Below, piece after piece: positions 14,750-20,430 of a stretch of 64,000 nucleotides of DNA. Location of the stretch: the IMG/VR virus record IMGVR_UViG_3300042898_002099; one strand, 5' to 3'. The notes beneath the pieces were generated by a model. It saw nothing but the letters and a program-made list of their open reading frames with translations. It had not been told where the DNA came from and searched no databases. The position numbers were made by a program, and so were the translations under genes. Position 1 is the first letter of the stretch, and each line of letters opens with the position of its first letter. This DNA is from a virus.

Positions 14750-15439
14750 TTATTTCCTGTCACCAAACAGTTGCAATAGGTTAATAAACAAGTTAATGAA
14801 GTCCATGTATAAAGTTAATGCTCCACGCACCTCTGCGCTATCGCTAGTTTCTATACTAAGTTCTTCACGAATCTTTTGTGTGTCGTATGCTGTTAGTCCC
14901 AAAAATATAATAATTGCCAATGCGCTAATAACCATTTGCATTACAGTGCTACCGATAAAAATATTGACTATACTAGCAATAATGATAGCAATTAATCCAA
15001 CAAACATAAATTTGCCAAGACTATCTAGACTTTGTTTAGTAAAGTAACCATAGCCACTCATAACACCGAATAGGATTGCTGCACCCATAAAAGCACTGAC
15101 AATACTACCCATAGTAAACACAGCAAAGATCATTGCAAAGCTCAATCCCATTAATGCCGCAAAACCATGTAGACATAACTGGGCTACACCTTTGCTAGGA
15201 TTTCTACCTAACACATAGCTAACACCAAAGATCGCTACCAGAGGTGAAAAGATTACAATCCACTTTAGTATACCCGTAAAAAAGAATTGTAGTAACTCTG
15301 GGTTAGTGCCCACAAAATAACTAATAAACATTGATACCATAACAGCAAGACTCATATGTCCGTAGACACGGCCCATTGCTGAGTTAATTTCACTTGCAGA
15401 ACGATATGTCATTCCGCCTGTATAGTTTGTTCCAAACAT
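14750..15439 (-). CDS. Bax inhibitor-1/YccA family membrane protein
   Basis: About 7 TM helices; FLGLTAYDTQKIR and GALTLYMDFINLF signatures. Confidence 0.92.
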   Translation of the reverse strand: MFGTNYTGGMTYRSASEINSAMGRVYGHMSLAVMVSMFISYFVGTNPELLQFFFTGILKWIVIFSPLVAIFGVSYVLGRNPSKGVAQLCLHGFAALMGLSFAMIFAVFTMGSIVSAFMGAAILFGVMSGYGYFTKQSLDSLGKFMFVGLIAIIIASIVNIFIGSTVMQMVISALAIIIFLGLTAYDTQKIREELSIETSDSAEVRGALTLYMDFINLFINLLQLFGDRK

Positions 15440-15452
15440 TTTGTTTGTTCCT

Positions 15453-16037
15453 TTAAATATCTTTTAATAAAAATCCCAATCTATCTCCTGCAGGGCTAGA
15501 GTAAAACTCGTCACGCCAAACAGGTATAATAGTATTGGCATTGTGATTAACAAAATCATCATTGTATCTAAAATGCACTTCAATAATACGGTCACCTATT
15601 ACTTCTACATTGAACCAGGGATATCGATCTGCAACAGTTTGCAGTATCTCTGGCAATTTAAAGTCCATATCAATTTTTGTCCAACGACTAAATCTATCTA
15701 GGCGCATTGGATCATTTCTAAATCCCTCAACCGCTAGCGTTTGTTTGCCCCAATGGTAATCAAAACTTAAATGACGACCAGTAAACACCTCACACCAGAA
15801 ATAACCATCTGGAATTGAATCTGAATCTAGGTATTGTATTGTTGCGCCTACTGACATCATTTTTAGATTTACAATAGGGCGCACCACATACTTACCCGGA
15901 ACAGTGGGTGCTATACCTGCAGGACCACATTCATATCCTAACTTCTTTGATAGAATTAATTTATCTATACACCAAAGATCATCTAAGGATATACTGTCAA
16001 ATACATCTATATCACCAATCTGAAGTACAGCTGTCAT
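15453..16037 (-). CDS. hypothetical protein, possible truncated ATP-grasp fold
   Basis: DKLILSKKLGY, YVVRP, WCEVFTGRHLSFD, NVEVIGDRIIEVHFR resemble ATP-grasp elements. Confidence 0.45.
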   Translation of the reverse strand: MTAVLQIGDIDVFDSISLDDLWCIDKLILSKKLGYECGPAGIAPTVPGKYVVRPIVNLKMMSVGATIQYLDSDSIPDGYFWCEVFTGRHLSFDYHWGKQTLAVEGFRNDPMRLDRFSRWTKIDMDFKLPEILQTVADRYPWFNVEVIGDRIIEVHFRYNDDFVNHNANTIIPVWRDEFYSSPAGDRLGFLLKDI

Positions 16038-16044
16038 TTATAAA

Positions 16045-16521
16045 TTATTCAAATTCGTTATCTTCTCTGTGACCGACTCTCATTGCCATGTTTGCATCTG
16101 TTTCTCGTACTTCAACCTTACTGCACCAGACTCGTTCTGCTTCGGCTTTGCCATACATTGGGAGAAAGATAGTATTAATATACTCATAAAGAAAATCAGA
16201 AATCCCCTCACAACCTGTCTTCTCCACTTCTGTAATTTTTGCTAATTTTAATCTGCCTAATTCAAGCAAATGTTCTCGCATAGGATCATCCTGTGCGACT
16301 AATAGAGTATGGTCAAACCAATCCTCTAATTTTTCTTTTAATGGTTTAAGTCCACCAAAATCCATACACCAATTACGAGCATCCAATGTGTCACATTCAA
16401 ATTCAAAATGAAATGATAGTGCATATCCATGAACTAGATTACAATGACTATCAGCTCTCCATTGTCTGTATGCTACGGGACCTATTTGTTTATATGTTTT
16501 TGTTGAGATATATTTTGCCAT
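16045..16521 (-). CDS. queD: 6-carboxy-5,6,7,8-tetrahydropterin synthase
   Basis: SHCNLVHGY (CxxxHG), MDFGGLK, FDHTLL, GCE, VEVRET. Confidence 0.9.
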   Translation of the reverse strand: MAKYISTKTYKQIGPVAYRQWRADSHCNLVHGYALSFHFEFECDTLDARNWCMDFGGLKPLKEKLEDWFDHTLLVAQDDPMREHLLELGRLKLAKITEVEKTGCEGISDFLYEYINTIFLPMYGKAEAERVWCSKVEVRETDANMAMRVGHREDNEFE

Positions 16522-16590
16522 CTCTTGCCTCTCTGAGTAAGTTTGATGGCATGCAGAATATTTAGAGAGGGGTGAATGCCGGAGACCTCT
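16522..16590 (-). ncRNA. candidate cis-regulatory RNA (pseudoknot, riboswitch-like) in the queD leader
   Basis: AGAGG-UCUCCGGCAUUCACC-CCUCU-CUAAAUAUUCUGC-AUGCC; P1 AGAGG/CCUCU, P2 GGCAU/AUGCC; CCUCUCU can alternatively pair with RBS-region AGAGAGG. Confidence 0.4.
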
Positions 16591-17641
16591 TTGTCATTTT
16601 CTGAAAAGCCCTAGAATCATACCAATCGAATAAATCTTCGATAATTTTATCTAAGTTACATTCCGGCTTCCAAGAAGTTTCAGATTGTAATTTTTCAGAA
16701 TTTGCAATTAATATTGCAGGATCACCATTACGGCGAGGTGCAACATTGAAAACAATGCCGTTGTTAATTCTTTCTTGATCTATTAAAAAGGTTTCTGTTT
16801 TAACAAATACTTCAAGATTAGAATATCCTTTGACTGAACCTATATTATATATGCCTTTGATATTATTCTCAATAGCTAAGATGTGTGCTTTGGCAATATC
16901 CGTGACATGAATATAATCTCTGATACAGGTTTTATCTTTTGTCGGATAATCTATACCATACATTGTAAATGGTTCATCGTTTAGCGCTGCTTCAAAAATT
17001 TTAGCAAAAATATGAGTAGCATTTGGTTCTTGACCGTGTGTGCCACCTTCAACCGCACCGCAAGCATTGAAATATCTAAATGATACATACTGCAAACCAT
17101 ATGCCTTATTGTGCCAATTAAGCATCATCTCAGTCATTAGTTTGGATTCACCATATGGCGATATTGGATTAGTATCTGATTTTTCAAATAGCATATGACT
17201 TTTTTCAGGGTCGCCATACACCGAAGCACTGCTACTAAAAATGAATTTTGTACCTGGAGAATATTTGGTAATATATTCCAAATACTTTGCAGTTTTAGCA
17301 ACATTATTTTCATAATATTCTATTGGGTCAGACATGCTTGGGCCAACCAAACTAGTACCAGCACAATGAATAATTGCATCAGGTATATTATCAGCTATAC
17401 AGTTTAATGATTTAGTATCAATAAAATCGCATTGAATGAATTCATCATAGTATGATTCTAAGTGAGAACTAACCCGCCTGTCGACACCAACTACTCTATA
17501 GCCTTGTTTCTTAAGTTCAATACAAATAGCGCCACCGATATAACCGGCGGCACCTGTGACTATAACTGTTTTAATATTTTGCTGCTGGGACATGATCTCT
17601 GTAATCCTTACCACCTCGCCACCAATGTGATCCTTCGGCAT
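16562..17641 (-). CDS. galE: UDP-glucose 4-epimerase (probable start near 17593)
   Basis: VTGAAGYIG, IHCAGTSLVGPS, FSSSASVYG, SPYGESK (YxxxK), RYFNACGA, CIRDYIHV. Confidence 0.9.
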   Translation of the reverse strand: MPKDHIGGEVVRITEIMSQQQNIKTVIVTGAAGYIGGAICIELKKQGYRVVGVDRRVSSHLESYYDEFIQCDFIDTKSLNCIADNIPDAIIHCAGTSLVGPSMSDPIEYYENNVAKTAKYLEYITKYSPGTKFIFSSSASVYGDPEKSHMLFEKSDTNPISPYGESKLMTEMMLNWHNKAYGLQYVSFRYFNACGAVEGGTHGQEPNATHIFAKIFEAALNDEPFTMYGIDYPTKDKTCIRDYIHVTDIAKAHILAIENNIKGIYNIGSVKGYSNLEVFVKTETFLIDQERINNGIVFNVAPRRNGDPAILIANSEKLQSETSWKPECNLDKIIEDLFDWYDSRAFQKMTKRSPAFTPL

Positions 17642-18749
17642 TGAACATAATATCTATACAACGATCAATAGTATTAGATGTCCAAGTAGCTAATTTGCCT
17701 AGATTGGCTCGCTCTTGAAACAATAAACTATTTAGTTTAAACACTGCATCATCTTGTGACCATGGAATGTAAAGACATTCACGATCATTGGCAAATGTTT
17801 CAGGGAATGATCTATACGCAGGGTACAAACAATTTGTACCTAGTGCATCTGCTTCTGATGCCGTATTACTTACCCAATCTTGTAATGCACAATTAAATAA
17901 TACTCGGGAATCACCTAACAACTCATAGTATTCATTCTTTTTAAGATTCTCATAGATTTTAAAATTATGAGTCTTTTCCAATGCTCGCGCGCGATCCAAA
18001 TACTTTTGATTGTTACTACGTAAAGGACCGCCTGATAAAACAGCAAATTCTACAGCAGGATTAAGTGTATGGTATCTTTCAATTAGATCCATAAAGAAAT
18101 CAGGTTGTTTTTCTTGATCGAATCTTGCCGCAAACACTACACGAAGTTTGCGCTCATTAAAAGGAATCTGTTTCACTACACGACTGCGAACTTCATCTTT
18201 GTCAAATGCCAAACCAGAGATATTAAAGATTGGTGCTTCCCAACCTGCAATTTTCATATGAGCAACCATCTCTTCGTTAGATGCAAGTACACCTGTAACA
18301 AATTGGTCTGTCATTTTCTCATATAGACCCATCCACTTCTGCATATCCCATACGTGAACGAAATCATCTGGATCAATAGATTGTGCAAGGCAACGAACAA
18401 ATATTCGAGGCTGATACTCATAACTTACTTGATCCATAATATAAGGCAATGCCTCAATACCAGGAGTAAACATATCTTCAAAAAAGATTGTATCTTCGTA
18501 TGTAATTTCACCAGCTTTCATCTTCTTAATAAGATTAGCCATCTGTGTCAGCGAATAATAACTACGACCGTGTGCATCAAGCACTTGTCCTGTTACAATT
18601 GCTTTAGAGTCATCTAAAATATCACCATGAATTACTTCATAATCAATACCTCGGCGCTTAAATGCTGCCTCACTCCAATGCTGAAGCTGCAAGGTATAAC
18701 GACCTTCATACGGCTCCAAACCCATATAATATAATTTTCCCATTATCAA
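17571..18749 (-). CDS. GT-B fold glycosyltransferase (GT4-like)
   Basis: VVFAARFDQEKQPDFF, YYELLGDSRVLFNCALQD...EADALG..LYP...FPE. Confidence 0.75.
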   Translation of the reverse strand: MIMGKLYYMGLEPYEGRYTLQLQHWSEAAFKRRGIDYEVIHGDILDDSKAIVTGQVLDAHGRSYYSLTQMANLIKKMKAGEITYEDTIFFEDMFTPGIEALPYIMDQVSYEYQPRIFVRCLAQSIDPDDFVHVWDMQKWMGLYEKMTDQFVTGVLASNEEMVAHMKIAGWEAPIFNISGLAFDKDEVRSRVVKQIPFNERKLRVVFAARFDQEKQPDFFMDLIERYHTLNPAVEFAVLSGGPLRSNNQKYLDRARALEKTHNFKIYENLKKNEYYELLGDSRVLFNCALQDWVSNTASEADALGTNCLYPAYRSFPETFANDRECLYIPWSQDDAVFKLNSLLFQERANLGKLATWTSNTIDRCIDIMFNAEGSHWWRGGKDYRDHVPAAKY

Positions 18750-19144
18750 TCCCTAGTAAAATACATTCTGCAACCGTTTTCGCCATCTTCTGAGACTTCG
18801 ATTACATAATCTCGATCAGGCCACTGAGCAATTAATTTTGCGTGTAAATCTTTAGCAATCATCTCACAAGATTTGTGATTCAATTGCAATGTGTCTTCAT
18901 TATACCAGCGTTCAATAGTACGCTTTGCTTGTATAAATTCAACATCCCTATCATCATGAAACACTTCCATCTCAACACGGAAATGAAAAATGTGTCTATG
19001 CAAGTCTGCAAGGAAAGACACATCTAGCCAATGATCATCTGGTTTACCAAAACGCTTTGTTGCTAATTTCGGATCCGTTGCCGCTGCTGGGTAACGATGA
19101 ATACCTTCCTTCTGAAAGGTAACAAAAATAAAACTCTTGTTCAT
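18746..19144 (-). CDS. QueD-paralogous T-fold protein, DpdL-like
   Basis: EGIH, LADLHRHIFHF (LxxxHRHxF), RDVEFI, SCEMIA, IEVSEDGENG; directly downstream of dpdA. Confidence 0.65.
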   Translation of the reverse strand: MNKSFIFVTFQKEGIHRYPAAATDPKLATKRFGKPDDHWLDVSFLADLHRHIFHFRVEMEVFHDDRDVEFIQAKRTIERWYNEDTLQLNHKSCEMIAKDLHAKLIAQWPDRDYVIEVSEDGENGCRMYFTRD

Positions 19145-20430
19145 GCAAATAAGTCCTCAAGTGTTGATGGGGCTACCTCGCTAACAGGTTCTGAATCCAT
19201 AAACCTGCCAACGTTCTTTTCCCAATAAAGAAAATCATCAGTGTTTTTCACATCGAATAATGTTGAAAATTCGTTCTCACAATTTTTATCTCTGCAGAAT
19301 CTTAAAAATTCTTCTTTAGAATTCATAAGTGTACTAACATCTAATGTGAAGTTATGCACATTAGTTAAGATAAATGCAAGTCTGGCTCTCATAACATCTA
19401 CAAATTTGCCGCCATTTTCAAGATATTCGCCTACAGAAATATTCATTAATTTATGATAATTTTCTGCGGTATATTCTGTGCCACACACAGCATTAATTTC
19501 TGCAACAACTGTTCTATAGATATTTGAAAATGGTCTTCCCATTTTTACAGATGAGCCACCATAATCACCGGGATTCTTTTTCTTGCTATGTGAAAAATAA
19601 AACAATCCATTATCTAAAGACATAGAATGTGTTGTCGAATCATATGAAATATCAATGCCATCATATAAGCCAGTTTGACTAAACAACAAATATGGCAAGA
19701 TACGTTTTAATGCACCTACACCCAATACGTGTAGATGAAATGGTCTTTCAAATGGTACAGCATTAACAAAGAATGCTCGCTTAACATCTTCAAGTGGTCC
19801 CATACCTAGAGCAGCTGATCCCATAGCTACACCACCAATACGATGATGTAATTCTTTTGGAATCTCATCAAGCATTGCCTCGCCCCATAACTTATAAGTT
19901 TCTTGACCTGAACCTTGAATAATAACAAACGGTCTGCAAGAACTTTTCATATCATCAAATCTTTGAATTTGTTCTAATACATTTTTACCAGTTTGTCTAG
20001 CATAACTTTCAAAATTTTCCATGTCAACATATCTACGCTTAGTATCAATTTTAGATGACACACCAGATGCAGATGTAGACTTAACCGGAATCTCATCAAA
20101 TGCCATTCCTATGTCTGCGTATGTTGCTTGATTCTCAAACACCTTATTACGAGTCTCAGATGTGTTTGGTAAACCTCTAGTAATAATCTGCAAACCTCCA
20201 GAGTCGGCATGAATGTTTTTAATTACTGGTCTAAATTTTTGTAATTTTGCACCAAAGTTCTTTTCAGTAAAACCATTATACAATAAAGAAAACTGATGAT
20301 TGTTTTTATTGTGAACAGTTCTGGAAATCATGTCTTTAATCATTTCCAATGTCTCAGGGTCATTACATTGTTCTGCACCCAACCTCAGATAAGCGGGACC
20401 TGATATAACATATTCTAATTGTCTGCTCAT
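19141..20430 (-). CDS. dpdA: TGT-family DNA 7-deazaguanine transglycosylase (DpdA-like)
   Basis: TGT motifs HADSGGLQ, MAFDEIP, IIQG, GGVAMG, HLHVLGVG, SYDSTT; clustered with folE/queD/queE. Confidence 0.82.
   Translation of the reverse strand: MSRQLEYVISGPAYLRLGAEQCNDPETLEMIKDMISRTVHNKNNHQFSLLYNGFTEKNFGAKLQKFRPVIKNIHADSGGLQIITRGLPNTSETRNKVFENQATYADIGMAFDEIPVKSTSASGVSSKIDTKRRYVDMENFESYARQTGKNVLEQIQRFDDMKSSCRPFVIIQGSGQETYKLWGEAMLDEIPKELHHRIGGVAMGSAALGMGPLEDVKRAFFVNAVPFERPFHLHVLGVGALKRILPYLLFSQTGLYDGIDISYDSTTHSMSLDNGLFYFSHSKKKNPGDYGGSSVKMGRPFSNIYRTVVAEINAVCGTEYTAENYHKLMNISVGEYLENGGKFVDVMRARLAFILTNVHNFTLDVSTLMNSKEEFLRFCRDKNCENEFSTLFDVKNTDDFLYWEKNVGRFMDSEPVSEVAPSTLEDLFA

Follow-up and report, generated by a model that had tools for sequence, protein, structure and literature searches.

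A conserved pseudoknot upstream of a phage queD-like gene, a candidate riboswitch resembling the preQ1-I class

The preQ1-I riboswitch (Rfam RF00522, types I-III; for example B. subtilis queC, T. tengcongensis, C. antarcticum and E. coli) is a small H-type pseudoknot linked to genes of the 7-deazaguanine pathway. Its defining features (PMC11625349) are a 5-bp P1, a P2 formed between the P1 loop and the 3' tail, a conserved U or UU directly after the P1 5' strand, a specificity cytosine immediately before the P1 3' strand (UC or AC), an A-rich L3 tail docking in the P1 minor groove and a P2 3' strand that carries Shine-Dalgarno (SD) nucleotides, or an aptamer followed by a terminator, giving an OFF switch. 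Other H-type pseudoknot riboswitches (SAM-II/SAM-V, guanidine-III and fluoride) are likewise compact pseudoknot aptamers that control translation. In T4-like phages the gene 32 leader pseudoknot (cited in PMC10690425) is a protein-bound translational operator, which nucleates binding of its own ssDNA-binding protein and represses.

The element studied here is located in the leader of a queD-like gene of an uncultured T4-like phage, on the minus strand of a 64,000-nt stretch of DNA (hereafter the window) belonging to the 119-kb IMG/VR virus record IMGVR_UViG_3300042898_002099. The first-pass annotation had proposed an H-type pseudoknot at this position, together with an alternative helix sequestering the ribosome-binding site (RBS), and what it saw in the sequence was confirmed, all strings and coordinates of the two helices being correct (Table 1). 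The 7-nt sequence CCUCUCU at 16570-16564 is also, as proposed, the exact complement of AGAGAGG at 16534-16528. The aptamer is 48% G+C against about 35% for the surrounding window. When folded alone the sequence is no better than shuffled sequences (z -1.12 for 91 nt and +0.25 for 161 nt), which says nothing either way, and the support comes instead from covariation across homologous leaders and from negative controls.

Table 1. Positions of the element, its surroundings and related features (window coordinates unless a homologous locus, numbered L, is given)
Position	Strand	Feature	Observation
16548..16590	-	Aptamer core, H-type pseudoknot from the P1 5' strand to the P2 3' strand	Covariance model built from 115 unique homologues hits 16545-16592(-) at 59.2 bits, E 6e-12; only hit in the 119-kb record
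16586..16590	-	P1 5' strand (AGAGG)	Pairs with 16566-16570; three of the five pairs covary (AU/UA/GU, GC/CG/UA, CG/AU/UA), the top two G-C pairs are invariant
16581..16585	-	L1; first nucleotide varies in the family (U/C/A), then an invariant CU, then a variable spacer	Starts UCU in 76, CCU in 57 and ACU in 53 of 186 unique aptamers
16576..16580	-	Distal P2 5' strand (GGCAU)	Pairs with 16548-16552; all five pairs change on both sides; 83% of cells paired, against 40-50% when the partner strand is slid; partner permutation z about 7.6
16573..16575	-	Conserved UCA (proximal P2); U16575 faces C16553 as a U.C mismatch, C16574 pairs with G16554, A16573 pairs with U16555	C-G invariant in 115/115; A-U in 111 and G-C in 4, none unpaired; 182 and 4 over 186 unique sequences
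16571..16572	-	Two-nucleotide junction; C16571 directly 5' of the P1 3' strand, where preQ1-I has its specificity cytosine	C present in every leader found through the protein alone, with no such requirement imposed; preceded by U, C or A; junction 2 nt long in 179/186
16566..16570	-	P1 3' strand (CCUCU)	
16556..16565	-	L3 (10 nt, family pattern NNANANAYUC)	Contains the epimerase stop codon UAA at 16564-16562; A at positions 3, 5 and 7 and UC at positions 9-10 invariant in 186 unique sequences
16553..16555	-	3' side of proximal P2 (UG) plus C16553 of the U.C mismatch	
16548..16552	-	Distal P2 3' strand (AUGCC), the strand that switches partners	Pairs with 16576-16580 in the knot or, as part of 16545-16551, with the start region
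16545..16551	-	Anti-start strand (UGCCAUC)	7-bp helix with 16516-16522 in the minimum-energy fold (-12.6 kcal/mol for the platform alone)
16528..16534	-	Shine-Dalgarno region (AGAGAGG)	Inside the platform hairpin, part of it paired to an upstream CUC; target of the lineage-specific alternative helix
16516..16522	-	Start-codon strand (GAUGGCA)	AUG at 16521-16519
16045..16521	-	Regulated gene, 158-aa QueD-like PTPS-family protein	Pfam PF01242 E 3e-15; PHROG 2389, QueD-like, E 1.5e-41; NCBIfam QueD 36.6 bits against a cut-off of 89
16562..17641	-	Upstream NAD-dependent epimerase (GalE-like) ORF, last codons encoded by the aptamer	Pfam Epimerase E 1e-55; overlap specific to this lineage (12/115)
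16844..16872	-	Promoter-like site (TTGAGA-17-TATAAT, 11/12) inside the epimerase gene	About 250 nt upstream of the aptamer; could be a source of transcripts that carry it
18746..19144 and 19141..20430	-	132-aa T-fold protein with LADLHRHIF (DpdL signature), overlapping a 429-aa TGT-related protein	Homologues at 44-63% identity in 8 of 9 motif-bearing phage records tested
14750..15439 and 15453..16037	-	Directly downstream of the queD-like gene, a 194-aa protein of an unknown PHROG (3577) and a Bax1-I family membrane protein	Pfam E 7e-53 for the second, an unusual gene for a phage
L161:6747-7172 and L161:6234-6725	-	Canonical QueD and HGY type in tandem behind one element	
L012:2456-2484	+	Sigma-70-like promoter (TTTACA-17-TATAAT with a TG extension)	Embedded in L3, the P2 3' strand and the anti-SD hairpin loop

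To collect homologous leaders a protein-anchored search was performed, which returned 80 viral loci whose QueD-like protein is 85-100% identical, and 68 of these carry one copy of the element on the strand of the gene, showing the same architecture with visibly different helix sequences. Two DNA pattern scans of viral contigs were then run, with patterns that specified only L2, the first two bases of the P1 3' strand and L3 and so said nothing about the P1 5' strand, P2 or the gene. In these scans, which were not exhaustive and gave at least 115 and at least 120 matches, a perfect 5-bp P1 partner was present in 96/115 and 111/120, while the same pattern in bacterial and archaeal genomes gave at least 120 matches, of which only 4/120 had a P1 partner and none looked like the motif. 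As that scan was not exhaustive either, absence from bacteria is not proven. The covariance model scores true members at 35-63 bits and the bacterial matches at 27.7 bits or less, and only as partial hits. Altogether at least 270 viral contigs carry exactly one copy each, giving at least 186 unique aptamer sequences.

Absence of conservation or covariation among homologous leaders had been named in advance as the outcome that would overturn the proposal, and the alignment of 115 unique sequences clearly shows the opposite. Three of five P1 pairs and six of seven P2 pairs change on both sides, 92.9% of cells are paired against 33-50% for slid partners, and 0/500 shuffles reach the observed score, although P1 pairing is 100% by construction in the sequences collected by pattern and the shuffle controls do not correct for phylogeny. 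The pseudoknot helix was never used to select the sequences, and swapping 3' partners between sequences lowers the best-helix score from 4.02 to 3.15 +/- 0.11. The alignment also revealed that P2 continues toward P1, with two further pairs beyond a conserved U.C mismatch, so that the refined model has a 2-nt junction ending in an invariant C, a 10-nt L3 and a two-part P2, the proximal part being invariant (apart from the A-U pair that becomes G-C in 4 sequences) and the distal part freely covarying. Positions 4 and 6 of L3 track the identity of the middle P1 pair, even within one platform type: when this pair is C-G, L3 reads Y at position 4 and A at position 6, and when it is A-U or U-A, L3 reads A at position 4 and Y at position 6, with very few exceptions in 186 unique sequences. 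This is a possible base-triple signature and what docking of L3 in the P1 minor groove would produce. No covariation was seen between L1 position 1 and the junction or L3.

Of 152 ORFs downstream of the element, 146 fall in one PTPS-family cluster and lie directly after it, while the other six copies have a single inserted ORF followed by a PTPS gene. In the second, independent scan 111/111 copies have a PTPS gene within 204 nt, and all of the roughly 270 copies precede a PTPS/QueD-family gene. The extra ORFs found in some phages between the element and the PTPS gene (loci L146, L154, L162, L184, L065, L029/L031, L047 and L058/L060; 58-282 aa, unrelated to each other, not annotated) look like insertions into the regulated leader. 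Members precede several PTPS subfamilies, and in locus L161 the element precedes a canonical CxxxHGH QueD which is followed by a copy of the CxxxHGY type found in the window. The protein of the window has CxxxHGY instead of the QueD signature, and a Tyr where the canonical copy has the N-terminal His, it scores far below the NCBIfam QueD cut-off, and a sequence search of the PDB gave no hit. As L161 carries both types in tandem behind one element, the HGY type may not be an ordinary QueD.

The queD-like gene closes a minus-strand run containing a MazG-like gene, a QueE-like gene, a GTP cyclohydrolase (FolE), an exonuclease, the TGT-related protein and the 132-aa protein. The latter carries the LxxxHRHxF signature, which PMC10516641 assigns to DpdL, the proposed CDG decarboxylase of QueC-less phages. 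Nine motif-bearing phage records examined have no convincing QueC, and eight of them encode a DpdL-like protein, so these phages probably make no preQ0 or preQ1. Among five motif-less relatives three have DpdL and two have QueC, numbers too small for either gene to be taken as a predictor of the element. The closest cultured QueD relatives, Acidovorax phage ACP17 (70%) and Xanthomonas phage X1 (63%), have no room for the element and no hit to the covariance model, and blastn of the locus and of two element variants against GenBank phages gave only chance-level hits.

When analysing the region downstream of the aptamer, the distal P2 3' strand was found to belong to a 7-nt strand pairing with the start region, in a hairpin that also buries part of the SD. 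Other lineages use different platforms, at least four architectures in all, but in each one the same strand forms the base of a helix that covers the SD or the AUG, the alternative partner being the start codon in the window and its lineage and the SD in other lineages, and some relatives (for example loci L032, L104 and L177) keep the anti-start helix through changes on both sides, reaching into the second and third codons. In 93.6% of 109 leaders at least two of the first five nucleotides after L3 pair with the SD or AUG window, against 80% after swapping that strand between sequences, a control that is already high because many members share P2 3' sequences, and 54% after shuffling it. P1 is compatible with both states, so only P2 competes, and forming the knot should therefore free the RBS. 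This ON logic is inferred from thermodynamic folds of the platform alone, as pseudoknot energies were not computed, and a stable knot 5-20 nt upstream of the SD could also hinder 30S binding. No terminator-like site was found.

The promoter content of the element was also examined. In the lineage with the CCUAUG-type platform 87/101 unique members carry a sigma-70-like promoter with an extended -10 (score of at least 9/12) overlapping L3 to the hairpin loop, so part of the sequence conservation there may act at the DNA level, and this lineage may also make a second transcript that lacks the aptamer. The site is nearly absent from other lineages (4/131) and the element of the window has no promoter-like site. 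MotA-box and late-promoter readings of L3 were likewise rejected for the window, since by inspection the MotA-box spacing is wrong and the late-promoter motif TATAAATA occurs in only some lineages.

A comparison with the Rfam preQ1 model, proposed beforehand as a check, gave no match to RF00522 at E up to 10 on 2.2 kb or on a 106-nt slice, nor at E up to 5 on ten diverse member loci, and no other Rfam 15 family matched the window or these members at permissive thresholds. In common with preQ1-I the element has the H-type topology with both helices covarying, a 5-bp P1 topped by G-C and the cytosine directly before the P1 3' strand, whose contact with any ligand is unknown. In contrast, L1 reads N-C-U rather than U or UU, P2 is longer (2 invariant pairs, the mismatch, then 4-7 variable pairs) and excludes the SD, which lies 5-25 nt downstream, and the inferred wiring is ON rather than OFF. 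L3 bears adenines and its correlation with the middle P1 pair fits docking in the P1 minor groove, but the tail ends in a conserved YUC instead of an A-run, observations which do not decide whether it is equivalent to the preQ1-I tail. For SAM-II/SAM-V, guanidine-III and fluoride riboswitches no Rfam model matches, and gene association and conserved nucleotides are unrelated. The T4 gene 32 element is likewise a pseudoknot in a T4-like phage mRNA leader governing translation initiation, while here the gene is a metabolic enzyme, the knot competes with an anti-RBS helix and the expected effect is activation. Literature searches for phage, queD or 7-deazaguanine riboswitches found no description of the element, the key phage 7-deazaguanine paper does not mention riboswitches, and a survey of over ten thousand viral structured-RNA candidates mentions neither queD nor riboswitches in its text, although an unnamed listing in its tables, which were not covered, is not ruled out. 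The element was found only in uncultured phage contigs.

The interpretation favoured, with moderate confidence, is a cis-acting translational switch in the leader of the queD-like gene, most likely a small-molecule riboswitch of a class not yet catalogued. The fold, its conservation, its exclusive link to PTPS/QueD-family genes and, by computation only, the mutually exclusive pairing rest directly on the analysis. It is by inference that the anti-RBS hairpin forms and translation is off without ligand, while a bound ligand locks P2, frees the RBS and turns queD on, and that the ligand presents a guanine-like face to the junction C. Binding was not assayed for preQ1 or any other compound, nor was an effect of ligand on expression, so riboswitch status is itself an inference, and an ON switch on a biosynthetic gene is unusual. 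Both 7-deazapurines and pterins have a guanine-like Watson-Crick face, and ON switches usually respond to a compound that the regulated gene consumes. The QueD substrate H2NTP (feed-forward activation) or a related reduced pterin is therefore ranked about level with CDG, 7-deazaguanine, preQ0 or preQ1, with guanine lower.

The interpretation given in the first-pass annotation was thus partly supported: a conserved pseudoknot of preQ1-I-like topology with a different tail, tied to the queD-like gene, is borne out, the suggested ligand classes (a deazaguanine, pterin or guanine intermediate) were not tested, and the proposed mechanism is not supported as stated.

Among the alternatives, a real pseudoknot without a small-molecule ligand is possible but less likely, being either a protein-bound translational operator held by the QueD-like protein or another phage factor, or a ligand-independent folding device setting the timing or level of queD translation within a polycistronic mRNA. 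T4-like phages use RNA operators, the closest cultured relative of this phage carries regA, no ligand is shown, and most copies lie 4-50 nt after an upstream stop codon, so terminating ribosomes will keep remodelling the structure. However, the element is exclusive to one enzyme family and precedes divergent PTPS subfamilies at 26-58% identity, which is hard to square with one protein-RNA interface, and eleven invariant unpaired or junction nucleotides in a 43-nt RNA, with an invariant C at the preQ1-I specificity position, look like a ligand pocket.

A diverged true member of the preQ1-I class still sensing preQ1 or preQ0 is doubtful. The shared fold, the cytosine, the adenine-bearing L3 and the link to a que-pathway gene speak for it, and the lack of any RF00522 match, the unconserved first L1 nucleotide, a P2 without the SD, the ON wiring and the absence of a convincing QueC speak against it.

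The mechanism first proposed, in which the P1 3' strand sequesters the RBS when P1 is open, possibly coupled to termination of galE translation inside the element, is unlikely. The perfect complement exists here and the epimerase stop codon lies in L3, so terminating ribosomes must open P1, but a helix of 5 bp or more is found in 16/21 unique members whose P1 3' strand is CCUCU and in only 5/89 with other P1 sequences. It is therefore a lineage by-product that follows from CCUCU resembling an anti-SD, rejected as a family feature, and although it may add to the OFF state in this lineage it is absent from the minimum-energy fold of the window leader. The upstream ORF runs into the aptamer in only 12/115 unique members, where the encoded protein tail differs between relatives while the RNA pairs are kept, and in 87 it stops 3-127 nt upstream.

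Conservation through a DNA-level signal such as a promoter is very unlikely and is excluded for the window, whose element has no promoter-like site. In spite of the promoter in the CCUAUG lineage, a promoter cannot explain compensatory changes in two helices, and short-loop variants lose the -10 but keep the hairpin.

Riboswitch classes encoded only by viruses are very rare and none is known to govern DNA base hypermodification. It is about as likely as not that this large and well-defined family is a new class confined to phages, a structural cousin of preQ1-I that binds a different guanine-faced metabolite (H2NTP or another pterin, CPH4, CDG or 7-deazaguanine) and activates queD translation, which would make it the first riboswitch dedicated to a phage DNA-hypermodification pathway and the first ON-type relative of the preQ1-I fold. 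If a ligand is confirmed, this roughly 45-nt RNA would show how the smallest known aptamer fold was re-tuned in both specificity and logic and would supply a very compact ON switch for engineering. It would also reveal that phages meter the entry of H2NTP, which is shared with folate synthesis, into 7-deazaguanine synthesis, as a pterin sensor would let the phage divert H2NTP from folate synthesis only when it is plentiful.
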